DNA from: a virus
Lineage: Duplodnaviria; Caudoviricetes
Virus record (IMG/VR): IMGVR_UViG_3300011268_000751
Location: 10,955-74,954 of that record
Reading direction: 5' to 3' (one strand)
DNA: 64,000 nt
The notes beneath the pieces were generated by a model. The model saw nothing but the letters and a program-made list of their open reading frames with translations. It made no database searches and had not been told where the DNA came from. Shown here in pieces: positions 4,222 to 42,957 of the stretch (within the stretch, counting starts at the first letter, position 1; every line of letters begins with the position of its first letter). The translations under genes were made by a program, and so were the position numbers.

Positions 4222-7200
4222 TCATGTTATTCTCATAATAAATGCCAACGCATAATACCTAGGAGTAATATCTACAGAAGTTCCACTTCCTGTAGGACTA
4301 ATTGTTACAGTATGAGTATGACCGCCCCCACCTGTTGCCGTTGCTGTATGTCCATGACCACCACCTCCACCTATTTGTCCTCCACTAGTATTTGGATTTC
4401 CTGAATTTGCTGGCTGTGTTTCGTTTTCACTAGTATCCAGGACAAATCCTCCATTGGGTCCTTCCCATCCAGTAGCATTGCGGTCTTTACTAATTATAAA
4501 TGCATGTCCATGATTTCCTACTTCAGATACTGTAATGGTATGTGTGTGATCAGTAACTTCGGTTAAAGTTGCAGTATGAGAATGTGAAGGTAGATTACTA
4601 TCTGTTAATGTTATACTATTACTTCCTCCAGTTCCATTATGTGTAAGCACTGATCCAGATCCTGCAATAAATCTATCTCTCAAATCTGGTCTTCCAGCAG
4701 TTCCATCACATAATGCCCATCCACTAGGAAGTGAAGAAGTCAATCCAGACCACATGATAATTCCACCAAGAGGAATAGTTCCATATCCATTAAATGTAGT
4801 ATATTCAGTTTGGCCAACTGTTTTGGCATAAACATTATTCCATCTTAATGTTGTAGTTCCAAAGTCAAAAGTTGCATCTAACCTAGGAACAATGTTGCTA
4901 TTAATTCTTGATACGAATGTTACGATATCACCTACAATGTTACCAAGGGTTACATCACCAGTTACATTCAAATTATTTTGAATGTCTATAGTTCCACCAA
5001 CAGAAGATAAAATAAGATTTCCTGAAACAGTGTCAATTACCGTGGGACCACCAGCACCAATTCTAACGTTGTCGATGGTAGCATTATCGGAAACATTTAG
5101 GACGCTAACAGTTAAAGTCGCAGCAAATATTTCTTCCCATCTCAATGTAGATGTTCCTAAAGTGAAGCTCTCATTTGCTGATGGAATGATATCACTATCA
5201 ACTCTTGCTACAAATGTCACTGTGTCGGAAGTTGCATTACCTAAATCTACATTACCTGTTACTAAAAGATTTCCAGTTAAAGTTAAGAAACCTTCAGTAA
5301 AGTTATCCAATCTAACATTATAATCTTCAGATAGAGAATTTCTCTTGAAGTCAATATATGCTCCACCGGCACCAGTTCTATAAAGTTCAATGTTTCCATC
5401 AAGATTAATAATTACTTTGCTCGCATCGGGAACATTTTCTTGGGTTACTGTCAAGGTATCATAGATATATGTTTCCTCATTTACAATTAAAATATCATCA
5501 ATAACAACTGATCCTGTAGAAGAGTCGAGGATTAAATCTCCAACTATTGTATCAATTATATTATCGTTAGCAATACCAATTCTTACATTATCAATTGTAG
5601 CACCACCATTAGCATCAACAAGTCCAGTAAAGGTTGAAATGCCAGTTACAGTTACATTTCTATCGACGTTCAATGATACATTAACATCTAAGTTATCATC
5701 AACTATAATCGTTCCACCTACAGAATTTAATGTTAAGGTTCCGGAAGAAGTATCAATTGTATTATCATTTGCTATACCAATTTGAATATTATCAATATAT
5801 GCTCCACCATTAGCGTCAATAAACCCAGTAAAGGTTGATACTCCAGTTACATTTAATTGATTATCTACAATTACATTTCCACCAAAAGCACCCAGATTTA
5901 AATTTCCAGTTGAAGTATCAATCTTATTATCGTTAGCAATACCAATTCTTACATTATCAATTGTAGCACCACCATTAGCATCAACAAGTCCAGTAAAGGT
6001 TGAAATGCCAGTTACTCTAACGTTCTTATTAACTACTAGATCCTTAACAATACCAACACCACCCTTAACAATCAGAGCTGCTCCAGCGGCACTAATTGTC
6101 AATAGTTCAGCAGTAATAACTGGTGATGCATCAGTAAGACTATTAATTGTCATGTCACCATCAAATCTAGAAGTTCCATCAACTCTGAGGTCTCTTCTAA
6201 TTCTCATACTATTATTAATGGTTAGATATCCATTAATTCTTAGTTCACCATTGAATGTTACAGGTCCATCAAACTGCGAAAGAATAGTTCCAGAGTTTCC
6301 ACCTTCAACAATTAAACGTTCCTTAATTACAACTTCATCAAATACAAGACTCAAACGTGAAGGATCTCTACCTGTAATTGTTGGAACTGGAATACCATAA
6401 GTAATTTGCGCTCCACTGGTTGATGAATATTTGGTATTTCCAATGTAGAAGTCACCATCACTATTCATTCCAGTATAAGCAATGTTTCCGCAAGATCTCT
6501 GCTGAGACTGTGAAAGGAATGCTTCAATTTCTGTTAGAGCTCTTACCTGAACCTGAGGTAAACCAGTTGAGTAGTTTCCAGGTCCGTATCCAAGGTATTC
6601 AAATGTATGTCCTGATGCTCTAAGAATAGATGGTCTTCTGAATTCAATTGGAATTGGTTTGATTTTCTTAACCAGAGTTCCATTAGAGTGCGGCTGCGCT
6701 CTGGTTCCAAGATATCCACGATGAACTCTAATTTGATTATTTCCAGATCCAGTTAATATATTGGACTCAATTCTCATAATTTCATTATCAATCTGAATAA
6801 AGCTTCCTACTGGGAAGCGACTCATTTGAGATTGTGTAATTGGAGTTGTAATTACGTCATCATCTGGTGTTAGACCATTTGTTAAGGTAGTAACTTCGCT
6901 ATCATAGAAATACATCCCTCGGGATCCAAGGCTTTCACCGCTTATATCTGAAATAGCATCGTTTGTAGATAAACCATGTTTTACTACATAACCACCAGAT
7001 GCAGAATAATCTTTCTTTGTTATCGCAGTGATTGTAGTTGCTGATATTTTCTCATCAACAATGAAATCTCCAAGATTATTATTACTGGAGTTAAAAAGCC
7101 TAAATTTATTTCCAAGAACTAAACCATGTGCGCTAGAGAAATTAAACGTTGTTAGTTTAGAAACATTATCATATGTTTGAGATGTGATTGTAGGTGCAGG

Positions 7201-10200
7201 ACCCGTTGGGAATATGTATTGACCTGTGGTAATTGATGGATCGAAATTGGTAATAGCAACGGCAACTTGAGTTGCTGATGGAATTGAAGTAATCTTATAA
7301 TATCCATCAGAAGTAGTTCCAATACCAGTGATTTGAATACCATCTCCAATATCACCAGAAATACCACTGGTTGCAATTTGAATTCTGGCGCCAGTTCCTC
7401 CTGGACCGATAACTTCCGGATCAAATTCTAAGAACTCACCATTTGTATATCCAGAACCTTTAGAAATAATATCGACACCATCAACAGATCCAAGTTTTAC
7501 AACAACTTTTGCAGTTGCACCATCCCAAGAACTAGATCCTAAATTAAATAGTTTTACATTATAATATGTTCCATTATTATATCCAGTTCCTGGAACAATT
7601 GAAGAGTAAGTTGCAACACCACTAAATCCATGTTGTCTCTCTAAGGTGATAGTTGCAGTTCCTGATGTTGGGGATGCGAATGATGTAGAAACTCCTGTAA
7701 TTGATAATCCAAGTCCAAAGTCCTTGGCAAATTTATCAATTGTTTCTCTAGTTATACTTCTCTTGAGATCATTTGTTACAACTTGACCGATTGGGAATCT
7801 CTTTGCAAATGTTTTTGCTGCTGGTGGATTATCATCAACATTATCATTATCTAACTGTGGATAAAGGTCAACAACGTGCTGAGCGTATTTTAAATAATCA
7901 AACTCTCCTGGAATAGGATTATCCGCATTCAGAACATATAGATGATAAATTCCATCTTGAACTCCATAAATGAAAGGTGTAATAACATCATTTCGATAGA
8001 TATAATAATTAGAATTTATATCATTCTTTTGGAATCTTGGGAGATCGGCATTTCTGACATTAGTGTTACTTAAAAATATTCCTGGATTTCTAGTTCTTCC
8101 AAAAATATCGGTGGTTTCATATGTGAATGTATTGTTATCAACAATAGCAGTAACTTCAAATGTTCCGTTAAATCCAAGAGTTGGAGCTGCAATTAAGTTG
8201 GTTGTACTCACTACATTGCTGATGATGACAATATCGCCAACTTTTAGACTATGGGGAAGGTCTGCAAATACTAAAACTTCAGTTCCATTTGTGGTGCATG
8301 TGCTAATAAATCTTTGGTTTCTCCTAAAAGCATAATCACCTCTAGTAATTGTATTTGCGGTAAAGTCTGAGATGGTTGATACACCAGTAGTGCTAGACTC
8401 CTGTAAAACAAATCCTGCTAATGGATCTCTTGCGTTTTCTGCTTCCTTTGGAATAACGACTCTTACCTTATAAAGCTTTTCATCTAAACTACGGGAGTCT
8501 GGAATTCTCTTAACAAATGAAACTTCTGTTCTATCAGTTCCAAATCCTGAGGTTCCATCAAGTCCCTTGATTGTGGTGTAAATATCATTGTTTGAATTTG
8601 TATTTACAAACCAGTTTCCTTGAACTAGGTCATACTGAACTGGTGATCCTGGTTCTCCAGGCTCTTTATCTGATACTCTACTAAAAATGTATAGATCCGA
8701 TCCACCATAACAAGTAATGGGAAACCTGATCTCGGCATTTGTTCTAGAAGATGCAAGTTGAATTTCATTTGCACTATATTTGATTGCATAATATTGTCTA
8801 TGCTCTACAAGATTTTCTGGAATATCTCCAGAATCACTAATCAATCTAACTTTTTCTCCATTCTGTAATGAGTGTGCTCCAATATTGAAGACTGTCGAAT
8901 TTAAATCCAAATCTGGATTTGGACCATCAATAACTCGATATAGTTTCTGTGCGCTTTCTGATCCTAAAGCTCTTGTATTAACACCAACTGTAGAGAGTGT
9001 ATTATCTACCATGTAGATACTCGCATCTTTAATTCCAAGAGGAGTTTCTACGAAAACTTTATCGTTTAATTTGGCACCAAGACGATATTGTTGTAGAATA
9101 ATCGGTGGTTTTACGTCTGGGTTTCTAAATCCATAGATGTAAAGATGATTAGAATTATTTGCTGTGCTCGTTAGACCTACATCAATTGAAATCCAGTCAA
9201 TATTTTCTTCTTCTTCAACGTTTGCTCTCGGTCCAATGATCGAAGTTATATAACCTCTATTATCTTTATCGAATGCTTCTGCCTTGTATCCAGTTGCAGC
9301 AAGAGAATATTGTCCGAAGTTTGAGTTGGAGTTTGTAATTGAAGCGTCTCCACCACTTTCGGAGTCAAAGTGTTTCGTAAATCCGATTGCAAAAACAGAA
9401 ACAACCTGAATGAATGAATCATTAGTTAGTTTAATATGACTTGTTTCCCAACCTTTTCTATAAACTGCTCTAGGATCTAAGTGATAAACTGAATTACTAT
9501 CGGTTGAAGAAGATTGTGATGAAAGTTCTGCTCCGCTTACGGTAACACTTGTGTCTAAACCATTATAAACTCTAGAAACAGGATCATATTTTACAAATGC
9601 TCTGTCATCTTTTTGTAGGGAAATTGCAGTAAATTGTGCCGTAACCATCGAACGGAAACCAGTTGCCTTATTACCATCGGCAAACAAACCATTCATGCCC
9701 CACACAGAACGTAAGGAGCAGTTAAAGATATATGGAGATGCTCCAGAAACAGTATCAGTCTCAATCGTTACTGTTGCTGAAGAAGCACCAGGGAATGCTG
9801 GAAGATTAGGTCTTACGAATGGGAGAAGATAGGTAAACTTATTTGGATCTTCATCATCAATCTCTGCAACTTTTGTTGAGATATTATAGTCTTGAGTATC
9901 AACTCCTCTAATCTTAATTGGTGTTCCAACAGAGAATTCGTGTGGTTTTGCAGTTGTTACGGTAACAACATTTGTTGCCGTTAAACCATTTCCAGATTGA
10001 ATTGAAGTAATTTCAAATGGGTCAGTTGCAAATGCACCTACAATTTCAAACTCTGGCCTTTGTGGAGCAATACCTGTTGTACTTGTTGGATATTTGTCAG
10101 AAAAAGGAATTAATCTTCCAGATGCATCATTATATGCATTTCCTAATTTAGCATAATACATCTCAAGGTCGGTGAGAGTATATCCATCAACAATATTAAC

Positions 10201-10881
10201 ACCGTCAGCATAAGCAAAACAGCTAAGTTTATGGTGACTGAATGTTGGATTAGTTCTGTAAGGTAAAGAGAAATCTGCAGGGTCAGTATAGACTACTCCT
10301 AGTTCATCACCATCAAAGAATGATGCCTGCCAAAAATAGCAAGCACCTGTAACTCTGAAAATGGTAGAAATCTTTGCGTTTGGATCAGTTGGGTTAGGAA
10401 CATATTTTGGTCTGATCTTAACCTTTCTTAGATCCAAACCAACGATAGAAGTTCCCCTAGGAACGATTACACCACCTTCTACGCTATTGAATTTATAGAG
10501 TTGATTATCTTCTTGAGTAATATCAAAGTTTGAAGTTAAAGTAAAGTTTAATAGATCCTTTGCCAAAAAATCAACACCAGCAGGAGAAACTGCATAAGCA
10601 AAACCATCATCTTCCTTGATTGCAAATCCTGGGCGATTATCAATCGTATGCTCTCCAGGAAAAAGAAGAATAGTGGTTTTTTCAGTAATATCGTTATTTC
10701 TACCTTTCAAGTAAGAAAATCTCGCAGACTCAATTAGAGCTCTTTGGATAGTCTTAAATGGTTTAGTTAGTGAATTACCCTGATTGCTAATACTATCAGT
10801 AGAGTCCAAGTCATTTGGATTAACGTAAAGAATTCTACCTTCAGTATTCTTAATAAAATTCTCTAATTGATTAAGAGGCAT
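4222..10881 (-). CDS. Large tail fibre / tailspike-like protein (2219 aa) with N-terminal beta-helix-like region and C-terminal tail-collar domain
   Basis: N-term RILYVNPND...PFKTIQRAL; C-term IPLGGIIMWSG...GWALCDG...PDLRDRFIAG tail-collar motif followed by five HxH motifs. Confidence 0.8.
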   Translation of the reverse strand: MPLNQLENFIKNTEGRILYVNPNDLDSTDSISNQGNSLTKPFKTIQRALIESARFSYLKGRNNDITEKTTILLFPGEHTIDNRPGFAIKEDDGFAYAVSPAGVDFLAKDLLNFTLTSNFDITQEDNQLYKFNSVEGGVIVPRGTSIVGLDLRKVKIRPKYVPNPTDPNAKISTIFRVTGACYFWQASFFDGDELGVVYTDPADFSLPYRTNPTFSHHKLSCFAYADGVNIVDGYTLTDLEMYYAKLGNAYNDASGRLIPFSDKYPTSTTGIAPQRPEFEIVGAFATDPFEITSIQSGNGLTATNVVTVTTAKPHEFSVGTPIKIRGVDTQDYNISTKVAEIDDEDPNKFTYLLPFVRPNLPAFPGASSATVTIETDTVSGASPYIFNCSLRSVWGMNGLFADGNKATGFRSMVTAQFTAISLQKDDRAFVKYDPVSRVYNGLDTSVTVSGAELSSQSSSTDSNSVYHLDPRAVYRKGWETSHIKLTNDSFIQVVSVFAIGFTKHFDSESGGDASITNSNSNFGQYSLAATGYKAEAFDKDNRGYITSIIGPRANVEEEENIDWISIDVGLTSTANNSNHLYIYGFRNPDVKPPIILQQYRLGAKLNDKVFVETPLGIKDASIYMVDNTLSTVGVNTRALGSESAQKLYRVIDGPNPDLDLNSTVFNIGAHSLQNGEKVRLISDSGDIPENLVEHRQYYAIKYSANEIQLASSRTNAEIRFPITCYGGSDLYIFSRVSDKEPGEPGSPVQYDLVQGNWFVNTNSNNDIYTTIKGLDGTSGFGTDRTEVSFVKRIPDSRSLDEKLYKVRVVIPKEAENARDPLAGFVLQESSTTGVSTISDFTANTITRGDYAFRRNQRFISTCTTNGTEVLVFADLPHSLKVGDIVIISNVVSTTNLIAAPTLGFNGTFEVTAIVDNNTFTYETTDIFGRTRNPGIFLSNTNVRNADLPRFQKNDINSNYYIYRNDVITPFIYGVQDGIYHLYVLNADNPIPGEFDYLKYAQHVVDLYPQLDNDNVDDNPPAAKTFAKRFPIGQVVTNDLKRSITRETIDKFAKDFGLGLSITGVSTSFASPTSGTATITLERQHGFSGVATYSSIVPGTGYNNGTYYNVKLFNLGSSSWDGATAKVVVKLGSVDGVDIISKGSGYTNGEFLEFDPEVIGPGGTGARIQIATSGISGDIGDGIQITGIGTTSDGYYKITSIPSATQVAVAITNFDPSITTGQYIFPTGPAPTITSQTYDNVSKLTTFNFSSAHGLVLGNKFRLFNSSNNNLGDFIVDEKISATTITAITKKDYSASGGYVVKHGLSTNDAISDISGESLGSRGMYFYDSEVTTLTNGLTPDDDVITTPITQSQMSRFPVGSFIQIDNEIMRIESNILTGSGNNQIRVHRGYLGTRAQPHSNGTLVKKIKPIPIEFRRPSILRASGHTFEYLGYGPGNYSTGLPQVQVRALTEIEAFLSQSQQRSCGNIAYTGMNSDGDFYIGNTKYSSTSGAQITYGIPVPTITGRDPSRLSLVFDEVVIKERLIVEGGNSGTILSQFDGPVTFNGELRINGYLTINNSMRIRRDLRVDGTSRFDGDMTINSLTDASPVITAELLTISAAGAALIVKGGVGIVKDLVVNKNVRVTGISTFTGLVDANGGATIDNVRIGIANDNKIDTSTGNLNLGAFGGNVIVDNQLNVTGVSTFTGFIDANGGAYIDNIQIGIANDNTIDTSSGTLTLNSVGGTIIVDDNLDVNVSLNVDRNVTVTGISTFTGLVDANGGATIDNVRIGIANDNIIDTIVGDLILDSSTGSVVIDDILIVNEETYIYDTLTVTQENVPDASKVIINLDGNIELYRTGAGGAYIDFKRNSLSEDYNVRLDNFTEGFLTLTGNLLVTGNVDLGNATSDTVTFVARVDSDIIPSANESFTLGTSTLRWEEIFAATLTVSVLNVSDNATIDNVRIGAGGPTVIDTVSGNLILSSVGGTIDIQNNLNVTGDVTLGNIVGDIVTFVSRINSNIVPRLDATFDFGTTTLRWNNVYAKTVGQTEYTTFNGYGTIPLGGIIMWSGLTSSLPSGWALCDGTAGRPDLRDRFIAGSGSVLTHNGTGGSNSITLTDSNLPSHSHTATLTEVTDHTHTITVSEVGNHGHAFIISKDRNATGWEGPNGGFVLDTSENETQPANSGNPNTSGGQIGGGGGHGHTATATGGGGHTHTVTISPTGSGTSVDITPRYYALAFIMRIT
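5560..6015. repeat. Perfect 90-bp direct repeat (5560-5649 and 5926-6015) with a diverged copy in between
   Basis: Both copies read attatcgttagcaataccaattcttaca...aaaggttgaaatgccagttac, compared by eye base by base. Confidence 0.9.
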
Positions 10882-11363: not shown

Positions 11364-11396
11364 AGGAGAATTTTCCCATATCTTATATTTATTTTA

Positions 11397-11469
11397 TGCT
11401 CCTTGCGTGGATCGAACACGCCTCAGGCGAATTATGAGTTCGCTGCATTCACCAGATTGCTAAAGGAGC
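11397..11469 (-). tRNA. tRNA with CAT anticodon, most likely tRNA-Ile2 (lysidine type) rather than Met
   Basis: Cloverleaf: acceptor GCTCCTT/AAGGAGC, anticodon arm GCGAA-CTCATAA-TTCGC, T arm GCGTG-TTCGATC-CACGC, A73, no encoded CCA. G1:C72 and no GGG/CCC anticodon stem exclude initiator. Has C4:G69 and C5:G68. Confidence 0.9.
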
Positions 11470-11472
11470 ATA

Positions 11473-11560
11473 TAGTCGCCCAGGGTATCGAACCCTGCCA
11501 AAGGCCCTAATCTGGGGCAAAGGGCTTATAAGGCCCCTCTGAACACCTGTTCTGACGACC
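11473..11560 (-). tRNA. Non-canonical 88-nt tRNA with TAT anticodon (Ile UAU) and long variable arm
   Basis: Acceptor GGTCGTC/GGCGACT + A73; anticodon arm GGGGC-CTTATAA-GCCCT; T arm CAGGG-TTCGATA-CCCTG; variable stem GCCC-CAGATTA-GGGC; short D arm GAAC-AGGT-GTTC; A at position 8. Confidence 0.75.
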
Positions 11561-11573
11561 ATAAACTAGATCA

Positions 11574-11602
11574 ATTATAGAGGATCTGGAACTCTTTGTC
11601 AA
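11574..11602 (-). promoter_or_regulatory. Sigma70-type promoter TTGACA-17-TATAAT driving the tRNA pair
   Basis: Perfect consensus hexamers at 11597-11602 and 11574-11579; the -10 ends 13 nt upstream of the first tRNA. Confidence 0.9.
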
Positions 11603-11799
11603 CTACCTTCTTCGTGATCCGTGTGTATTCGAATCAGGTCGTCAACTTCCTTATACTCTTCATAAGGAATCAGCATAGCATCTCCATATTCACTTTTGAT
11701 AAGGAAGGATTGACCTGCCTCAACCTTATCAAGGTATTCTTCAAAGTTTTCTTGTAATTCTTCAATCGTTAGAGTTTTCATAGATTGCAAGATCGGCAT
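11599..11799 (-). CDS. Phd/YefM-family antitoxin-like protein with no cognate toxin in the window
   Basis: MKTLTIEELQENFEEYLDKVEAGQSFLIKSEYGDAMLIPYEEY matches the Phd/YefM pattern. Likely true start at the internal MKTL. Confidence 0.65.
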   Translation of the reverse strand: MPILQSMKTLTIEELQENFEEYLDKVEAGQSFLIKSEYGDAMLIPYEEYKEVDDLIRIHTDHEEGS

Positions 11800-11997: not shown

Positions 11998-12026
11998 ATT
12001 ATAGGGGGTCCTGGCGCTGGTGTCAA
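11998..12026 (-). promoter_or_regulatory. Sigma70-type early promoter TTGACA-17-TATAAT
   Basis: Perfect hexamers at 12021-12026 and 11998-12003; the -35 overlaps the TGA of the upstream hydrolase. Confidence 0.9.
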
Positions 12027-34330: not shown

Positions 34331-37300
34331 TCATGACAATTCACCAAGATCATTTATTGCTAGAGTTGGACCTGGATCACTAAGAGCATCAAATGTTGGT
34401 GAAATAGCAGATCCAAATGCATCAGAAACAAGAGAACTAAAGTCTCCATAATCTCCAAATGGAATGAAGAGTATCTGATTTGAAACTACTTCAAGAAGAT
34501 CATCGAGTGCTGCTCCTTCATTTAAAGTGATTGAAGTTCCATTATCAGCAACATATTCAGTTTCACTTAAACGAATTCCATTTAAAAATACGTCTATTTG
34601 TCCCACATTATATGTGGTTGAAAATAATGTTTGTCCGTTTGTTGCAATAAAAGATGTTGTATTCCTAGAAACTCCAGTTGGAGATGATAAAGAAGTTGTA
34701 ACTGTTACAATACCAACAGATGCTTGAGATACCGTTAAGTTTCTTCCAAAATTAATAGTCAGAGCAACACCAACATTAACATTATTATTGCTAATATTAA
34801 TACCAGTAGATGATGAAGGAATAACTCCTGTTAATAAAGATCCATCACCAATAAACTTGAGTGCTGTTATAACTCCTACAGTGTTTATCTGTGTTGCACT
34901 AACAATACCTATTGTAGATATTCCAGATACATTCAGATTAGTTACATCTACAATTCCACCAATTGTATTTGTAGCAATACCAGAAGTCTGAGAGTAGGTT
35001 GCAATACCTGCATTTGGAGAATATGTGGAAACTCCTGAAGAATTAGAATAGGTTGCAATACCTGCATTATTTGCATAAGTTGCAATACCTGCATTTGGAG
35101 AATATGTAGAAACTCCTGAAGAATTAGAATAAGTTGCAATACCAGCAGTCTGAGCGTATGTTGCAATACCTGCACTTGATGAATATAAAACAGATGAAGG
35201 TTTCCAAACACTATTACTCGCATCCCAAATTAATGACTGACCGTTTGCTGGTGCCGTTGTAAAAGTATCGACATCATCAAGGTTATTAATTACATATCCA
35301 AGAGATGTTGATACTCCAACACTATTTGGGAATGGATAATTTTGTGGAGTGAAATTAGAAGTGTATCTCGCAATTCCTTTGGTGATACGAAGATCATCTA
35401 TGTATCCATCAAAATCACCATTCCAATATCTTCCTATACGCAAATTTGACGCTGATGTTGTAAATGTGGCAGACGTAGTCGCCGTCGTCCCTGCTACACC
35501 ATTTAGATAAGCAGTCACTGTGGAACCACTACGCACAAATGCAGCATGATACCACGTTCCTGTGATTAACGTTCCTGTGCTACACAAAGCCGTTCCCGTT
35601 GAGGGAGCATTCCAGATTGATAACCTATTAGTCTGTGTGCTGTGATCTAGCACGATCACAAATGCTGTTCCCGTGAATGATGATGCACCGTTAGAGATTA
35701 GACCAGAGGTCTGCATCGTATTGACATATAACCAAAACTCAATCGTAAAATCACCATCTAACGTAAATGCATTATTGCTATTTACAGTTAAAAAATCTCC
35801 ACTACCATCAAAATAAGCACTAGCACCACCAAACTTACTCTGTGCCGTGCTTATAGCAACATTACCATTTGGAGTAACTGTTAGATTATTGGAACTAGAA
35901 TCTGTGAAGGTGGTAGATCCATTACTACCATCCATGTGAAGTAGTAATGATACATCATTAAAGTTAGTATCTGTTGGATCTGGATATGCTACAGTGGGTA
36001 AAGTGAAACTAGATGTATATCTAGCAATTCCCTTTGTAACTCTAACATCGTCAATATATCCATACCAAAATGCTTGCGACCCATCCCATCCATTACTACC
36101 AATTCTAAGACCATTATTGGAAATATTAAGGCTCTGAGTATTAGTTGTAATTGCCTCTAAAGCACCATTAACAAATAGATATACACTAGAACCACTCCTT
36201 ACCAAAGCAACATGATACCAAGATCCAGTATTAATAGTTGTAGTACTAGAAATAATTGGATTAGTAGTATTGGTTCCAACGTTTATTTTTCGTGGAGATC
36301 CAGAAACCATGAAATACCATGATCCAGTTGATCCAGAACCACTAAATGATGGGTTTCCGTTTCCTAAAAGTGTTGGATATGAATTTAATAATCCAGTAGC
36401 ATTAAACCAACATTCAATTGTAAAATCTCCAGTTCCAAATTGGAAATTTGGATTATCTTGAATGTTTATATAATCTCCACTGCCATCAAAATACGCACTG
36501 GCGCCACCAAACTTACTCTGTGCCGTGCTTATTTGGGTGTTTCCAACAACGGTTATAGTATTAATACCAGAATTTGCTCCACTATCAATAAAGGTAGTAG
36601 ATCCATTACTACCATTCATATGCATCAGTAATGATACATTATTAATATAAGGATCACTAGTATTGTAACTATACCCACCAATGACTGGACCAGAAACCCA
36701 TTCACCATTTTGATAGATTAATGCTCTGCCATCAGATGCTGCTTGAATAGCAGTGATATTGACATCACTAATTCCATCTAAAACGGTTGCTATTCCAGTT
36801 AATGAAGAACCATCACCTATAAACTTAGAAGCAGTTATAATACCAGAAGTAAAAACACTAGAGTCTATATCTAAAGTTCTCGCTATTGTTGAGATACCAG
36901 CAAGTAAAGCATAAGTCGATACTCCTGCCCTAGTTGCATAAGTTGCTATACCTGCAGTCTGAGCGTAAGTTGAAACTCCAGAAACAGAGGCATAAGTCGC
37001 TATACCAGATGTCTGAGAGTAGGTTGCTATACCTGCAGTTTGAGCGTAGGTTGCTATACCCGCCGTCTGAGCGTAGGTTGCAACTCCAGCAATAGAAGCA
37101 TAAGTTGAAAGACCAGCACTTATACCAGTTAATTGACTTCCATCACCAAAGTATCTGGTTGCAGTAACAACTCCAGAAAATAATCCATTACCAATCACAT
37201 GTAATTTTGATGTTGGATTTGTGGTTCCTAATCCAACATTTCCACTATAAGGAGATAATACTACTCTACCATTAGAGTTTGCTAAGATAATTGGAGTTCC

Positions 37301-38452
37301 AGAAATATCATTAACTCCAAAAATATCTCCAGTTAAATTATTAGAAATTGATAATAACTGACCTGAAGATCCCTCAAAACTCAGTGCTCCACCATCTTGT
37401 TCGTATCCTTTAATCTTAATATGTTGAGTTGTAGAAGTTCCACCAGAAACTACAACCTCGCCGTTTACATGTAGGTTATAAAGTGGATTTGTTGTTCCTA
37501 TACCAACCTTAGAAAGAGTATGAATACCTGCAGAATTTGTAACCCACTGAGAGGATATACCAATTACACTAGATAGACCTGATCCGTCACCAACAAATCT
37601 AGATGCAGTGATGATGCCAGTAGTATTAATACTTGAGGTTGTTCCAAAACCTACAGCAAGAGATGCTATACCAGCACTGGAAGCATAAGTTGCAATTCCC
37701 GCAGTTGATGAATAAGTTGAAAGACCGGAGATTGAAGAATATGTTGCAATGCCACTAAAAGAAGAATATGTTGATATACCTGATACCTGAGCGTAGGTTG
37801 ATATACCTGCTATAGAAGCATAATTTGAAAAAGTCGATAATCCACTAGAAGAAGCATAAGTAGATATGCCAGATACAAATGCATATGTTGCAATACCAGA
37901 AGAAGTAGCATAATTTGAATAAGTTGCTAAACCTGCTACTGAGGCATAAGTTGCTATACCAGAACTAGAAGCATAAGTCGCTAAACCTGCTACTGAGGCA
38001 TATGTAGAAACTCCAGCAACCTCAGCATAAGTCGCTAAACCTGCTACTGAGGCATATGTAGAAACTCCAGCAACCTCAGCATAAGTCGCTAAACCTGCTA
38101 TTGAGGCATATGTAGAAACTCCAGCAACCTCAGCATATGAGGATATCCCTGCAACTGGAGCATAACTTGAGAAGATTGTAACAATACCTGAGTTTACAGG
38201 TGTTACATTAACTCCTTGTCCGAAATTAATTTCAAATGCAGATCCAACTAATACATTATCATCGGTGATTGTTATACCAACACCAGAAGCAACAACACCA
38301 GTCAATAAACTTCCATCACCAGCAAATTGAGATGCTGTAATTATTCCAGTAAAATATGAATTACCAACGACTGAAAAACTAGTCAGATCCTCAGTTGCTG
38401 ACTCAATACCAACGTTAAAATATGGTTCTCTTCCGCTTAAAAACTTTGCCAT
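34331..38452 (-). CDS. Long tail fibre with two tandem LamG-like domains and three 9-aa repeat arrays
   Basis: Two SLL(M/L)HM.GSNGSTTF...ISTAQSKFGGASAYFDGSGD...ARYTS.F domains (~35330-36640); AG(I/V/L)(A/S)TYA arrays; five GDGS joints. Confidence 0.8.
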   Translation of the reverse strand: MAKFLSGREPYFNVGIESATEDLTSFSVVGNSYFTGIITASQFAGDGSLLTGVVASGVGITITDDNVLVGSAFEINFGQGVNVTPVNSGIVTIFSSYAPVAGISSYAEVAGVSTYASIAGLATYAEVAGVSTYASVAGLATYAEVAGVSTYASVAGLATYASSSGIATYASVAGLATYSNYATSSGIATYAFVSGISTYASSSGLSTFSNYASIAGISTYAQVSGISTYSSFSGIATYSSISGLSTYSSTAGIATYASSAGIASLAVGFGTTSSINTTGIITASRFVGDGSGLSSVIGISSQWVTNSAGIHTLSKVGIGTTNPLYNLHVNGEVVVSGGTSTTQHIKIKGYEQDGGALSFEGSSGQLLSISNNLTGDIFGVNDISGTPIILANSNGRVVLSPYSGNVGLGTTNPTSKLHVIGNGLFSGVVTATRYFGDGSQLTGISAGLSTYASIAGVATYAQTAGIATYAQTAGIATYSQTSGIATYASVSGVSTYAQTAGIATYATRAGVSTYALLAGISTIARTLDIDSSVFTSGIITASKFIGDGSSLTGIATVLDGISDVNITAIQAASDGRALIYQNGEWVSGPVIGGYSYNTSDPYINNVSLLMHMNGSNGSTTFIDSGANSGINTITVVGNTQISTAQSKFGGASAYFDGSGDYINIQDNPNFQFGTGDFTIECWFNATGLLNSYPTLLGNGNPSFSGSGSTGSWYFMVSGSPRKINVGTNTTNPIISSTTTINTGSWYHVALVRSGSSVYLFVNGALEAITTNTQSLNISNNGLRIGSNGWDGSQAFWYGYIDDVRVTKGIARYTSSFTLPTVAYPDPTDTNFNDVSLLLHMDGSNGSTTFTDSSSNNLTVTPNGNVAISTAQSKFGGASAYFDGSGDFLTVNSNNAFTLDGDFTIEFWLYVNTMQTSGLISNGASSFTGTAFVIVLDHSTQTNRLSIWNAPSTGTALCSTGTLITGTWYHAAFVRSGSTVTAYLNGVAGTTATTSATFTTSASNLRIGRYWNGDFDGYIDDLRITKGIARYTSNFTPQNYPFPNSVGVSTSLGYVINNLDDVDTFTTAPANGQSLIWDASNSVWKPSSVLYSSSAGIATYAQTAGIATYSNSSGVSTYSPNAGIATYANNAGIATYSNSSGVSTYSPNAGIATYSQTSGIATNTIGGIVDVTNLNVSGISTIGIVSATQINTVGVITALKFIGDGSLLTGVIPSSSTGINISNNNVNVGVALTINFGRNLTVSQASVGIVTVTTSLSSPTGVSRNTTSFIATNGQTLFSTTYNVGQIDVFLNGIRLSETEYVADNGTSITLNEGAALDDLLEVVSNQILFIPFGDYGDFSSLVSDAFGSAISPTFDALSDPGPTLAINDLGELS
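34975..38165. repeat. Three 27-bp coding repeat arrays (~34975-35180, ~36890-37115, ~37670-38165)
   Basis: e.g. gcatatgtagaaactccagcaacctcagcata three times at a 54-bp period near 38000-38135; 81-bp duplication near 35000-35160. Confidence 0.8.
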
Positions 38453-38793
38453 TAGTTTAGTGTCTCTAGGATACTACCGATGAATTTAAGATTTGTTGAA
38501 TTAGAACCTGAAAGAACTAGAATATCTCCAGACTCAAGAACTAATTTTCCAGAAAGTAGATTTGCAGTATCATTTGCAGGAATACTAAAATCTTTTAGGA
38601 TTTCAGTAGTAACTGCAATGCCAGCAACTTTTCTCTGATGAGAAAAAGAAACTTGGTGAGTTTGATTACTAATATTTGCAATTTGTGCTAACAAAACAAC
38701 ACCAGTATATCCAACAGGTGCTGTATAAATTCCAACTGGTGATGTTTGTGCGACTTTAGTGACAGTTTTAAATACGTTAAGTGCTAATGCCAT
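38452..38793 (-). CDS. Small virion structural protein (113 aa)
   Basis: IYTAP.G...VVL.AQIANI...KLVLE.GD.L motif typical of small phage tail proteins; coupled on both sides. Confidence 0.65.
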   Translation of the reverse strand: MALALNVFKTVTKVAQTSPVGIYTAPVGYTGVVLLAQIANISNQTHQVSFSHQRKVAGIAVTTEILKDFSIPANDTANLLSGKLVLESGDILVLSGSNSTNLKFIGSILETLN

Positions 38794-38794
38794 A

Positions 38795-41700
38795 TTATCC
38801 TCCGAGTGCTAAAATGAATGGTGTCATGGTTGAGAACAAACTCTTAGAATAGAACGTTCCAGAAATAGTTCCAGTCTGCTGATTAATCACAACACCATCA
38901 CCAATTCTAAAGTTACCAGATTGATCGGTGCTGGTGAATACAACCAATCCACCATTCTTTGCCACAGTTTCATTATCTTGAATTGCAACACCACCAGTGG
39001 AAGGAAGTGCCTTAGATATTTCAGTCCCTGATCCGATATACTCTAATGAATGGCCTGAGGCAAGCAATCTACTCTGTTTAAAGAATGGTGCCTGTGTTCC
39101 AACTCCAACGGCATAGGGGACATTATCAGAAATAGTAATAGTGCAAATTCCAGAACTCGTAATTGGAGTACAAGAATTAATCACATAATATGCAGGAACC
39201 ATTTCCGCATAGGCAATCGCTGTATTTATTCCAACATCAGGAGATAGAACTGTAACTTTTGGTGGAACTTTATAACCTCTACCATTAGAAATCATCTCAA
39301 TATTTCTAACTCCACCATCAACAACTTCTGCTACAGCAGTTGCAGGAATTCCCCATTCAGTTTCTGGTTCTTCAATAATAATATCAGTATTTGTTAGATA
39401 TCCAGTTCCACCAGAGGAAACAACAACTTTACCGACACTATAATAAAGATCTCCAAAATAAACTACCTGACCGTCAAATGGGCGAATTGTATTGATCTTC
39501 ACAGTTCCACCACCCACATAAGTATGAGGAAGAGTTGATGCACCCACATTTGCACTAAATACCGTGCTTGCTAAAGATACTGAAGGAAGACCAGTTAAAG
39601 ATCCTGCACCAATATAAGTAGTAAGAATTCCAACTAGATTATCAATCGTGCTATAAACATCAGCACAACCGTTGATGTTTTGATTTGAATTAACTGCAGG
39701 ATCAATTTGAAGTGCCAAGTTCTGTGCGTTCAGTAAATTATTAATTGCCTTCTTGGAGTAATCTCTAATCGCACGGAATGCTGTAATTGACTCAGCAACT
39801 TCTCCAACTAAACCATTTGAACGTGGTGCTCCACTGATGGTAAAATAAGACTTTGTTGCTTCTAATATACTCTTATTAGTATATCCTTCAAGATCATCAG
39901 CAATCGCATCCACAATATATCCAATATCTCTACGACACTTACTCTGCCCTGTAACAAAAATACCCGGATTAATTGTTATAGTATTGAGAGTAGAAAGATT
40001 TCCAATACCAACTGCCTGAGTTGTGATGCTGACAAGAGTATCAATTGCAGATTGAACGTTAGCACATGAGTTTGGAGATGTATTAAACCCAGTTACAGGA
40101 TCTGCAGTGAGTGTAAGATCCTTATAATTTAATTGATTGGTAATTGCTTTCTTTGCATAATCTCTAGCGGAGTTGAAAGCATAATTTGACTCTGCTTCTT
40201 CTCCTAGAAGAGATGTAGTTGCAGATCCTACATTGTTAAAGTAGAACTTAGTAAATGCGATAGTATAAGAATTTCCACCAGTAAAGATGTCTGTTGAGAA
40301 TGCATCTACAAAATATCCAAGGTCTCTAGCACACTTATTCGTTGTTGAAATGCCAAGATTTTCATTGAATGTTGATAGTGATGCAGTTGTTCCAATTCCA
40401 ATTACTGTGGTTACAATTCCTACAAGAGTATCAATATTTGCCTGAACGTCTGTGCAAGAATTTTCATTTCCAGATTGTAGAACCAGTAACGAAGTTCCTA
40501 TTCCACCATATGTTGCAGGACCAGAACTAATTCCAAGGTTTTTGAAGTTCAGTTGATTTGTAACTGCCTTCTTCATTAAATCTCTAGCAGAATTAAAGGC
40601 AGTTACACTTTCCACTTCTTCACCAATCAATCCATTTGATATTGGATTGCCAGTATTATCAAAATACTGAAGTGTAAAATCTCTAGAATACTTATTACCA
40701 CCAGTAAATACATCAGTTGAAATTGCATCAATCAAGTATCCAAGATCTCTGGCACACTTATATCCACCAGGAGAACTTGTGGTTCCAATTCCAACTCCTA
40801 GATTAAAGTATCCAAAGTTAGAATTAGGAAGTGAAGATGTGCTTCCTGAACCAATTACAGTTGTTACAATTCCAACAAGGTTGTCAATGTTCGTTCTAAC
40901 ATTCGCACAGGAACTGGGATCAGTATTAAATCCAGTTACAGGATCTGCGGTGATTGTTAAATCACTATATGCTGCACCAACAAGAGTGTTTGTGATTGCA
41001 CTCTTCATCAGTTCTCTTGCTTCAACAAATGCATAATTTGATGCTACTTCTTCACCCTGTAGTCCGTTTGTGATTGGATTACCAGCACCATCAAAGTATT
41101 GTAGAGTAAATTGGCGAGAATAATTATTACCACCCGTGAAAACATCAGCGGAGATAGCATCTACAAAGTATCCAAGATCTCTCTTACACTTAGACTCTGA
41201 CGATGCAATCGCTGGATATACATTATAGGCATTCGTCCAGGCAATACTTACGATAACATCCTTATTTCTTTGAATTAATCTATAGGCATCAAAGTATCTA
41301 GATCTATCATTTGTTTGAAGATCGCCAGGAAAATAAAAATCGGAATGAGCGATTGCAACTGCACCTAAAGACTTATCGACGATTTCCTGCTTGTTAATTT
41401 GAATTAACCTGGAAGCATCATAATATCTCGATCTTGCATTTGTTTCTGGTTCATCGGGAAAATAAAATCCAGATGGAAATCCAATAGCAATCGATACTAA
41501 AGATTTATCTACTATTTCTTGCTTGTTCTGCTGAATTAAACGATACGAGTCATAAAATCTTGAGTATTGTGTAGTCTGCTGATCTCCAGGGAAATAAAAA
41601 TCAGGATGCTCTATTGCAATTGCTGCAAGAGATTTATCTTGAATTTCTGTTCTATTTGCACGAATTTGGTTTGCTGCATCAACATATCTACCAGGAGCAA

Positions 41701-42910
41701 CTGTTTTAACCTCAAAATTATATCCAAACTTACCAGATGGATATGTTAGAATTCCAGGTCCAGAGGGGCAAGTAAATCCAAGACCAACAATCGAAACTCC
41801 CATTCCCACATTAAACTTATGTGGTTGACTGGTCGTGATCGTAACAATACCACACCCATTATCATATTTTGCAGTCACTACACCTAAGGTTGGAGTGCTT
41901 AAATCAATTGTGAATGTGTCACTATTTGAATCTGTTGCCTGTACTATTAAACCAGTAAATTTTAATGGTCCAACACCATCCGAAACCAGGGCATAGTCTC
42001 CAAAGGATGAGTTAGAGTTTGTGAGATCACATGCACCGCCAGATCCACAATAAACTGCAGTCTCATTACAGATAGTGAATAAAGAAACTAACTGGGCGTA
42101 TCCCTCATTAGTAATAGAACAACCAATTCCACCCTGATTATATTGAGTATAAGAATCAAGAACCATACTCTTCGTAGGTCCAATAGATAACTTACCGTCT
42201 ATTCTGAGACCAATACTATCAGGAATAAAGTTCGTACAATTCTGAATATAGGGTGATTGTGCGTTATATCTTGCCGCTGCTGGATCAAAAGAAAAAATTG
42301 CTCCAGGATTTGCTGGACCTACAAATGCCATCTCGGCAATATAATTTCCTTCACCAACATAAAACAAATCACCTTGATTTTGTGGAGTTACACTTACTTC
42401 ACGAAGACTATCACCAACCACACTCACTTGGTTTGGTAATGTGATTGGATTATCTTCTATGTAAGTTCCAGCACTAACCTTAATAACAGTTCCCTCTGTT
42501 GCTGCTGCAACTGCTCCCTTGATAGTTGCCTTTGCTTTTCCAAGGGTTCTTCCATCATTTGCATCACTTCCATTTTTTGTGACGTAGAGGAGATTTGTGA
42601 CTTGTGGAAATCCATTTACCGTAACCGTTGATAAACCACTAACAACTGGAGATACTTCTAAACCAACTCCAGAAAAATTAACTGTATTTGCAAATCCTAC
42701 AATAGTTCCGTCTTTAGCAACTCGGACACCAGAAATCTTTTGAATGGTGTCTGTAGTTACATTATCAAGAGATAGAATATTTTGTAATTGACGCCCAGAA
42801 CTAACAACTTGCGAATTACCGATGCTTACGGAAGTTGCAGTTACTACACCAGCATTAACTATATTTCTACTATCATCGATGATAGTAGATCCTACGATTT
42901 TAATTGCCAT
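38795..42910 (-). CDS. Tailspike-like beta-helix protein with inserted helical repeats (1371 aa)
   Basis: LYVTKNGSDANDG....AKATIKGA...GTY.E..P...VVGDSLR; four ~44-aa RY.DA.RLI..NK.EI repeats; about four ~140-aa KC.RD.GY..DA repeats; CTAAATA promoter at 42946-42953. Confidence 0.7.
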   Translation of the reverse strand: MAIKIVGSTIIDDSRNIVNAGVVTATSVSIGNSQVVSSGRQLQNILSLDNVTTDTIQKISGVRVAKDGTIVGFANTVNFSGVGLEVSPVVSGLSTVTVNGFPQVTNLLYVTKNGSDANDGRTLGKAKATIKGAVAAATEGTVIKVSAGTYIEDNPITLPNQVSVVGDSLREVSVTPQNQGDLFYVGEGNYIAEMAFVGPANPGAIFSFDPAAARYNAQSPYIQNCTNFIPDSIGLRIDGKLSIGPTKSMVLDSYTQYNQGGIGCSITNEGYAQLVSLFTICNETAVYCGSGGACDLTNSNSSFGDYALVSDGVGPLKFTGLIVQATDSNSDTFTIDLSTPTLGVVTAKYDNGCGIVTITTSQPHKFNVGMGVSIVGLGFTCPSGPGILTYPSGKFGYNFEVKTVAPGRYVDAANQIRANRTEIQDKSLAAIAIEHPDFYFPGDQQTTQYSRFYDSYRLIQQNKQEIVDKSLVSIAIGFPSGFYFPDEPETNARSRYYDASRLIQINKQEIVDKSLGAVAIAHSDFYFPGDLQTNDRSRYFDAYRLIQRNKDVIVSIAWTNAYNVYPAIASSESKCKRDLGYFVDAISADVFTGGNNYSRQFTLQYFDGAGNPITNGLQGEEVASNYAFVEARELMKSAITNTLVGAAYSDLTITADPVTGFNTDPSSCANVRTNIDNLVGIVTTVIGSGSTSSLPNSNFGYFNLGVGIGTTSSPGGYKCARDLGYLIDAISTDVFTGGNKYSRDFTLQYFDNTGNPISNGLIGEEVESVTAFNSARDLMKKAVTNQLNFKNLGISSGPATYGGIGTSLLVLQSGNENSCTDVQANIDTLVGIVTTVIGIGTTASLSTFNENLGISTTNKCARDLGYFVDAFSTDIFTGGNSYTIAFTKFYFNNVGSATTSLLGEEAESNYAFNSARDYAKKAITNQLNYKDLTLTADPVTGFNTSPNSCANVQSAIDTLVSITTQAVGIGNLSTLNTITINPGIFVTGQSKCRRDIGYIVDAIADDLEGYTNKSILEATKSYFTISGAPRSNGLVGEVAESITAFRAIRDYSKKAINNLLNAQNLALQIDPAVNSNQNINGCADVYSTIDNLVGILTTYIGAGSLTGLPSVSLASTVFSANVGASTLPHTYVGGGTVKINTIRPFDGQVVYFGDLYYSVGKVVVSSGGTGYLTNTDIIIEEPETEWGIPATAVAEVVDGGVRNIEMISNGRGYKVPPKVTVLSPDVGINTAIAYAEMVPAYYVINSCTPITSSGICTITISDNVPYAVGVGTQAPFFKQSRLLASGHSLEYIGSGTEISKALPSTGGVAIQDNETVAKNGGLVVFTSTDQSGNFRIGDGVVINQQTGTISGTFYSKSLFSTMTPFILALGG

Positions 42911-42957
42911 TTACCGTCTTCGTGTTGCCACTGGGTAATCAGATTTATTTAGGTCAG

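Follow-up and report, generated by a model that had tools for sequence, protein, structure and literature searches.

A stretch of cyanophage DNA of 64,000 nucleotides (the window) carries a compact tRNA gene with a UAU anticodon and a long extra arm. From sequence comparisons, we consider it probable (about 0.7 by our own estimate) that this gene encodes a genuine phage tRNA, early-transcribed, that reads AUA as isoleucine and is not a recoding device. Keeping AUA apart from AUG is a classic decoding problem, and bacteria usually solve it with lysidine made by TilS; the usual IleRS charges a plain UAU tRNA only poorly. In all 121 full-length copies compared, the loop of the extra arm carries the triplet GAU, which is the anticodon of the major isoleucine tRNA.

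The tRNA(UAU) gene and its fold

The window belongs to a 75-kb cyanophage contig of 35-36% GC in which nearly all genes lie on the minus strand and whose nearest named relatives are the Synechococcus phages S-SRM01 and S-SKS1. Its gene content is that of a baseplate, tail and fibre region, and a series of exceptionally long ORFs (2219, 1373, 1371 and 2463 aa) occupies the fibre/baseplate portion at 4222-10881 and 34331-50349 on the minus strand. Over the whole contig, ARAGORN called only two tRNAs, both on the minus strand: tRNA(tat) at 11561..11472 and tRNA(cat) at 11470..11396. The first was reported as tRNA-Ile(tat); covariation among homologues (see below) sets its extent at 11560..11473, which gives an 88-nt gene with G1 at 11560, the discriminator base A73 at 11473 and no encoded CCA.

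The acceptor stem starts with the 5' strand GGUCGUC (11554..11560), which pairs with 11474-11480 and contains a conserved G1.U72 wobble. It is followed by a single linker base, A8, and a reduced D arm (11541..11553 including the linker) of sequence GAAC-AGGU-GUUC, that is, a 4-bp stem closed by the 4-nt loop AGGU with G18 G19. The anticodon arm (11519..11539) consists of a 7-bp stem and the loop CUUAUAA, a canonical loop (C32 U33 ... A37 A38) with the anticodon UAU at 11530..11528. The variable region is 23 nt long and reads UU-GCCC-CAGAUUA-GGGC-CUUUGG. It comprises the extra arm (11504..11518), with a 4-bp stem GCCC/GGGC and the 7-nt loop CAGAUUA (11514..11508) in which GAU occupies 11512..11510, and a conserved, single-stranded linker CUUUGG (11498..11503) between the extra arm and the T arm. 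CUUUG is invariant in this linker but was fixed by the search pattern, and the last base follows the two sub-lineages. Finally, the T arm (11481..11497) is formed by CAGGG-UUCGAUA-CCCUG, with a 5-bp stem and the loop UUCGAUA. All these elements are read on the minus strand.

The minimum-free-energy fold of the RNA is this cloverleaf (-38.1 kcal/mol, z -2.7), and none of 200 shuffled sequences folded as well. A sequence-only reading of the window had proposed a non-canonical class-II-like body carrying a UAU anticodon and A73, an assignment that ARAGORN, the fold and the homologues now bear out; its coordinates, its length of 88 nt, its 7/5 branch, A8, the 4-nt D loop and the 23-nt variable region all stand. 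It had missed that the gene lies on the minus strand and that GAU sits at the centre of the variable-arm loop CAGAUUA. Measured against canonical tRNAs, which have U8 and a D loop of 8-11 nt, the molecule is atypical in its invariant A8, its one linker base and its 4-nt D loop. The Rfam tRNA model (RF00005), run on 601 nt, did not report it even at E<=10 and found only the neighbouring CAU tRNA, and a search of the whole window at the Rfam gathering thresholds gave no match.

Homologues and covariation

Pattern scans located the compact UAU tRNA on more than 120 IMG/VR contigs, and BLAST revealed copies in S-SKS1, S-SRM01, S-CBWM1 and DSL-LC02. The GenBank records of these four phages do not annotate the tRNA; in the fifth record checked, SynMITS9220M01, a near-identical copy of the DSL-LC02 form is annotated as tRNA-Ile. 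The loop sequences were fixed in the first IMG/VR scan, and the repeat was anchored on the D arm, leaving the anticodon and the whole variable arm free. The covariation set consisted of the 44 distinct 88-nt sequences among the matches listed (at least 120) from the IMG/VR pattern scan.

The fold, which the sequence-only reading had left to be confirmed by covariance, is supported in these 44 distinct homologues. Standard pairs fill 99.5% of the 1188 stem cells, a share that drops to 38-46% if partners are shifted by 1-3 columns, and compensatory, two-sided changes occur in 17 of the 27 pairs and in all five helices. The acceptor and T stems are paired in every copy, with double changes in five of seven and four of five pairs, respectively. 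Two of the four D-stem pairs covary (CG/AU and UA/CG), as does the stem of the extra arm (GC/CG; GC/CG/AU/UA). Within the anticodon stem, the inner four pairs covary; the outer three (G.U, A-U and G.U) are invariant and thus provide no covariation. The bases G22, R23 and G24 of this outer extension are nearly never replaced in IMG/VR (0, 0 and 2 exceptions, respectively, over three scans).

Since the seventh acceptor pair and the first T-stem pair both covary (GC/CG in each case) and the base at -1 is variable, the branch is 7/5 and not built on an 8-bp acceptor; A8 is invariant and cannot pair with column 80. For the same reasons, we rejected the drawing with an 8-bp acceptor (8/4 or 8/5), in which ARAGORN and RNAfold add a U-1:A73 pair, A73 being the discriminator base. 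We also considered an alternative fold in which AGAG (21-24) pairs with CUUU (58-61), giving two 4-bp hairpins on a common stem. It is not favoured: the G24-to-A variant keeps an A-U pair with U40, whereas its pairing with C58 would be A.C, and the subtypes with a 5-bp arm read CUUGAG. In two compact copies, from a Nostoc MAG and a second record (L186 and L221), A23 is changed to C together with U41 to G and U59 to G, positions 41 and 59 being the two bases able to pair with position 23. This co-change, seen in a single lineage, may reflect a base triple or an alternative helix with the CUUUG linker.

Besides the covarying 7-bp acceptor and 5-bp T stems, the elbow contacts of tRNAs in general (T54-A58, G18-U55 and G19-C56) are present. 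G18 G19 is found in 43 of the 44 copies and A73 in all of them. T54-A58 is replaced by A54-U58 in five copies, and G18/U55 changes to A/G together in one; these paired changes point to selection on a tRNA-like elbow. Pair 1-72 is G.U in all copies except one, in which it is U.G. The G1.U72 wobble recurs in phage tRNA-Ile(UAU) genes of the plain type and in several GAU-arm copies from bacteria, which suggests a shared functional feature. The copy of S-CBWM1 (L002:1501-1591) has suffered a 1-base deletion that leaves a 6-nt anticodon loop, UUUAUA, and an A.C stem mismatch; all other helices and the CAGAUUA loop are kept, and ARAGORN makes no call. This long UAU tRNA may be decaying or may be a variant.

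The loop of the extra arm is as constrained as the anticodon loop

With the anticodon left free in the scan, TAT was recovered in 121 of 121 full-length copies. The loop of the extra arm, equally free, reads CAGATTA in 119 of them and CAGATCA in the other two, GAU being kept in all 121. The extra loop is therefore as constrained as the anticodon loop, whereas its own stem varies freely. GAU is flanked in this loop by A at the position equivalent to 33 and by U or C at the equivalent of 37, where a purine is expected. We considered whether the extra hairpin could be the true anticodon arm of a tRNA-Ile(GAU) containing an insert, and rejected this drawing: the extra loop has A33 and U37, and the UAU loop is canonical.

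The CAGAUUA loop was found in none of the 98 long-arm Leu, Ser and Tyr tRNAs of the same loci (1 Mb of phage DNA). Extra arms of another kind occur in cyanophages on the class I isotypes Asn GUU, Cys GCA and Pro UGG, which are 80-89 nt long and have small arms with GAAA or GGAA tetraloops (L002:2425-2510 in S-CBWM1, and loci L028, L041, L080 and L105). In locus L017, the variable region of one tRNA-Lys(UUU) is 12 nt long and unstructured, and includes GAUUA.

Promoter and neighbouring genes

A sigma-70-type promoter, TTGACA-17-TATAAT, with 12/12 matches, lies at 11574..11602 on the minus strand, with 13 nt separating the end of its -10 box from G1. A look-up of public RNA runs containing this DNA listed none. 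Of 98 distinct sequences upstream of homologues, 41 contain a comparable promoter (at least 10/12 matches, at the same distance). In many of these loci the tRNA promoter is bracketed by a CCAGATC/GATCTGG palindrome, and the -10 box frequently falls within CCAGATC-N10-GATCTGG, a candidate operator that could be the target of the Phd-like protein described below. A second perfect 12/12 sigma-70 promoter, at 11998-12026 on the same strand, serves a DUF7294 ORF, and both promoters fall within 450 nt.

Only 2-3 nt downstream of the UAU tRNA lies the CAU-anticodon tRNA (11396..11470, minus strand; called by ARAGORN, Rfam tRNA score 52.5 bits), with which it is presumably co-transcribed. In other phages, a CAU tRNA follows within 150 nt for 42 of 89 long UAU tRNAs, and 68 CAU tRNAs lie within 600 nt of a long UAU tRNA. 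The adjacent CAU tRNAs form a distinct conserved class with the D loop UCUGGUGA and an acceptor that starts with GCUCC, GCAGG or GCUCG. Where a phage has a full tRNA array, another CAU tRNA of a different type (acceptor GGCAGUG, loop UUCAUAC) is located elsewhere in the array, so that the adjacent one may be a lysidine-type tRNA-Ile2 rather than the elongator tRNA-Met. In that case, one transcript would contain two AUA readers. A BLAST of the CAU tRNA against E. coli genomes, in view of an Ile2 or Met annotation, gave no match.

Directly upstream of the UAU tRNA lies an ORF of 66 aa (11599..11799, minus strand) resembling Phd/YefM (phrog_375, 1.3e-11; PF02604, 28.9 bits, narrowly below the cut-off of 29.8). 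It is an orphan, with no toxin gene beside it. A Phd-like ORF is found on the same strand within 300 nt upstream in 81 of the 119 loci with room for it. In S-TIM5, the same slot contains the Phd-like gene followed by Ile, CAU and Leu tRNAs, the Ile gene being an ordinary 72-nt tRNA-Ile(UAU).

About 10 loci hold both a short canonical and a long UAU tRNA, sometimes 3-20 nt apart. The short form measures 73-75 nt in loci L028, L045, L055, L059, L061, L062, L072, L102 and L108, and the gene orders seen in two-form loci are long-CAU-short-Leu(UAA) and long-short-CAU-Leu(UAA). This co-occurrence argues against a simple redundancy of the two forms, which do not appear to be simply interchangeable and may do different jobs. 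These loci and the plain form of S-TIM5 show that a UAU tRNA does not strictly require the arm.

Meaning of the AUA codon in the phage

AUA is abundant in this AT-rich phage, where it accounts for 414 of 21,087 codons (19.6 per 1000), a quarter of all isoleucine codons. Moreover, the cyanobacterial hosts almost never carry a UAU tRNA: two such genes have been reported in 61 cyanobacterial genomes, AUA being read by CAU tRNAs instead (PMC6933170). The abundance of AUA speaks for a tRNA that reads this codon.

The use of AUA in conserved proteins is isoleucine-like. In a 441-aa tail protein, seven of the ten AUA positions fall in nearly invariant Ile columns of an alignment of 119 homologues. 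In a codon-level comparison with six named phages, 45 aligned codons are not AUA; 29 of these are AUU or AUC, 6 encode Leu and none encodes Ser. For the 846-aa baseplate hub, the 20 AUA positions were compared with 35 representatives of 50%-identity clusters. The AUA columns have compositions of I 0.30, V 0.19 and L 0.11, close to those of the AUU columns (I 0.40, V 0.17 and L 0.11), whereas Leu-codon columns contain L at 0.44-0.47 and Ser-codon columns S at 0.21-0.25. By these alignments, in which the AUA profile matches that of AUU, AUA is isoleucine in this phage. The codon test gives the meaning of AUA and not the tRNA that delivers it, since a host tRNA-Ile2 also reads this codon.

A wider family in bacteria

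Among 185,579 prokaryote species genomes, none matched the strict compact pattern. Relaxing it to CTTATAA ... CAGATTA ... GGTTCRA gave 96 matches, 49 of which are called tRNA(tat) by ARAGORN, with lengths of 89-101 nt. The combination of UAU anticodon and CAGAUUA loop is found in bacteria mostly among Acidobacteria. Carriers with a normal D arm belong to Pyrinomonadaceae and Blastocatellia, and those with Sec-like long D stems to Terriglobia, Ca. Angelobacter and Bryobacteraceae; further carriers are Rhodobacteraceae, Acidithiobacillus and Polynucleobacter, and the compact cyanophage type occurs in a Nostoc MAG and an Aquiluna MAG. The design of the window tRNA, in which a UAU anticodon arm precedes a hairpin with GAU in the middle of its 7-nt loop, recurs on other bodies in phages and in about 49 bacterial genomes. 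By this shared sequence, the window tRNA is the compact representative of a larger family of UAU tRNAs with the CAGAUUA loop.

Among the closest published counterparts is the allo-tRNA(UAU) group (Mukai et al. 2017, NAR 45:2776, PMC5389517; review PMC7609411), which shares with the window tRNA the UAU anticodon, a long variable arm, a D tetraloop, a lengthened anticodon stem, neighbours of toxin-antitoxin type and a presence in phages and Acidobacteria. The text of Mukai et al. does not mention a GAU loop (PMC5389517). Allo-tRNAs differ in having an 8/4 or 9/3 branch and mostly G73 or U73, as for serine identity, whereas the window tRNA has a 7/5 branch and always A73, and thus departs from the group on both counts. 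The Acidobacterial GAU-arm set of the relaxed scan overlaps the allo-tRNA(UAU) group in taxa and shape (Terriglobia, Bryobacteraceae and Ca. Angelobacter). In these copies (L139, L159, L168, L171, L195 and others), the CAGAUUA loop goes together with a long, Sec-like D stem, and the acceptor of some seems to reach 8 bp. They probably correspond to the allo-tRNA(UAU) group already described; if so, that group would consist of isoleucine- and not serine-type tRNAs.

Other classes resemble the window tRNA in part. TilS-independent class I tRNA-Ile(UAU), such as Mycoplasma mobile tRNA-Ile2 (PMC3575796), has the same anticodon, A73 and a presumed lysidine-free reading of AUA. These plain tRNAs measure 72-77 nt, and the bacteria relying on them have an adapted IleRS, whereas the GAU-arm carriers tested are Trp-type (see below). 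The plain tRNA-Ile(UAU) of S-TIM5 occupies the same genomic slot and also has G1.U72. Class II Leu, Ser and Tyr tRNAs and the nematode nev-tRNA-Ile(UAU) (PMC3333845) share the stem-loop variable arm, and nev-tRNAs also share the UAU anticodon. However, their arm has a short variable loop in place of a 7-nt loop of invariant sequence, and the D loop of the window tRNA is only 4 nt; moreover, nev-tRNAs are nematode-specific with a Leu-type body, while the phage uses AUA as an isoleucine-like codon. Bacterial tRNA-Sec has in common the 4-nt D loop, the long anticodon stem and the long variable arm, but its 8/5 branch, 6-bp D stem, UCA anticodon and G73 are absent here.

A possible role for the extra arm

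In the sequence of events that we propose, the tRNA would be transcribed early, from its own sigma-70 promoter and together with the adjacent CAU tRNA; host enzymes would trim the transcript and add CCA, and the product, its D arm shrunken, would adopt an L shape and read AUA as isoleucine. Charging with isoleucine, as well as the job of the arm, we infer. Our preferred proposal for the arm, tentative and more likely wrong than right, is that it acts as a second, non-decoding 'identity anticodon', so that IleRS reads GAU and the ribosome reads UAU. The host enzyme, presumably a Trp-type IleRS, would handle U34 poorly, and its flexible C-terminal domain would read G-A-U on the extra loop instead. 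'Which amino acid' would thereby be separated from 'which codon', and A33 and U37 would keep the extra loop from acting as an anticodon.

Several observations bear on this proposal. In E. coli IleRS, W905 is the cause of the poor charging of a UAU tRNA, and bacteria that rely on UAU have Arg or Lys at this site or a eukaryote-type enzyme; the same study lists the cyanobacterium Cyanothece PCC 7424 and Ferrimonas balearica as carriers of tRNA-Ile(TAT) whose IleRS is of the Trp type (PMC3575796). When we aligned the IleRS of four bacteria with the GAU-arm design to that of E. coli, all four had Trp in the W905 column. This fits an arm that supplies GAU to an unadapted IleRS, and the support is weak, Trp-type IleRS being the majority state in bacteria. 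A precedent, limited to archaeal LeuRS, exists for the reading of variable-arm loop bases by a class Ia relative of IleRS (PMC9976931). Against the proposal, t6A at A37 is a strong determinant for bacterial IleRS, and the extra loop has neither U33 nor an A37 that would carry this modification; moreover, a cyanophage of the same host genus, S-TIM5, has a plain short tRNA-Ile(UAU), and some phages hold the plain and the long form together. A full-text literature search found no description of an extra arm with a GAU loop on tRNA-Ile.

The molecule could also be an AUA-reading isoleucine tRNA whose arm has a use unrelated to IleRS, whether as a handle for a modification enzyme (such as one acting on U34, against AUG misreading), a support of the shrunken core, a processing signal or a means of escape from anticodon nucleases. 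Such a role is possible, if on the improbable side. The loop is conserved like an anticodon loop and yet is an imperfect anticodon mimic, G22-R23-G24 and the CUUUG beside the arm are sequence-invariant, and the small GNRA-capped arms of the cyanophage Asn, Cys and Pro tRNAs leave room for a general role of arm expansion. No partner enzyme is linked to the arm, and mere compensation for the reduced D arm does not account for it, since the same hairpin sits on bodies with a normal D arm, in DSL-LC02 and Pyrinomonadaceae, and on Sec-like bodies. We consider it unlikely that the RNA works outside translation, as a tRNA-shaped decoy, sponge or regulator directed, for instance, against a host toxin or a tRNA-cutting defence and acting with the Phd/YefM-like protein. 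The frequency of the Phd-like ORF directly upstream (81 of 119 loci) would suit such a role, as would a bait with two isoleucine anticodon-like loops and the phages that keep a normal short tRNA-Ile(UAU) beside the long form. In addition, published allo-tRNA(UAU) genes lie near toxin-antitoxin genes, and Mukai et al. found no suppressor activity in E. coli for the variants that they tested (PMC5389517). However, the linkage extends beyond the long form, since in S-TIM5 an ordinary tRNA-Ile(UAU) adjoins this Phd-like gene. The molecule moreover retains the 7/5 branch that EF-Tu requires, along with an anticodon loop, a T loop and an A73 like those of a functional tRNA, and the phage has a high demand for AUA decoding.

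The sequence-only reading had raised the possibility that LeuRS or SerRS charges this RNA through its long arm and A73, inserting Leu or Ser at AUA or AUG. E. coli LeuRS indeed ignores the anticodon, and a long-arm tRNA-Ile(UAU) of nematodes is leucylated in vitro (PMC3333845, PMC4300185). Nevertheless, recoding is not supported and appears very improbable: in two conserved tail proteins the AUA columns are of the Ile/Val type, like those of AUU and unlike Leu- or Ser-codon columns, with Ile codons far ahead of Leu codons at the aligned positions, and inserting the wrong residue at 2% of all codons would carry a heavy cost. Leu charging by an enzyme of the E. coli type requires A15-U48, G18G19 and A20a (PMC9976931); A73 and GG are present here, but the 4-nt D loop (NGGU) leaves no room for A14, A15 or A20a, and position 8 is A. 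Ser identity is opposed by A73 in the place of G73, by the arm with its 4-bp stem and 7-nt loop, and by AUA columns that contain no Ser signal. A pseudo-tRNA or a chance fold, for which one could invoke the missing Rfam match, the four unannotated GenBank records and the 6-nt anticodon loop of the S-CBWM1 copy, is next to impossible to reconcile with the covariation, the loop conservation, the promoter and the wide distribution of the gene. A phage tRNA that reads AUA as isoleucine thus remains the reading that we prefer.

Implications

Because standard tRNA models miss this gene and four of the five GenBank phage records checked do not annotate it, phage tRNA inventories and codon-supply analyses undercount AUA readers. 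A widespread UAU tRNA whose extra arm conserves the anticodon of the major isoleucine tRNA suggests a third solution to the problem of reading AUA. If IleRS does read the GAU of the arm, an unadapted, Trp-type IleRS would suffice for phages and some bacteria to use an AUA reader that needs no lysidine. This would be the first case in bacteria of a sequence-specific recognition of the variable arm by a class Ia synthetase, with identity naturally uncoupled from decoding. Finally, the Acidobacterial link may re-explain the functionally puzzling allo-tRNA(UAU) group as isoleucine, and not serine, tRNAs.
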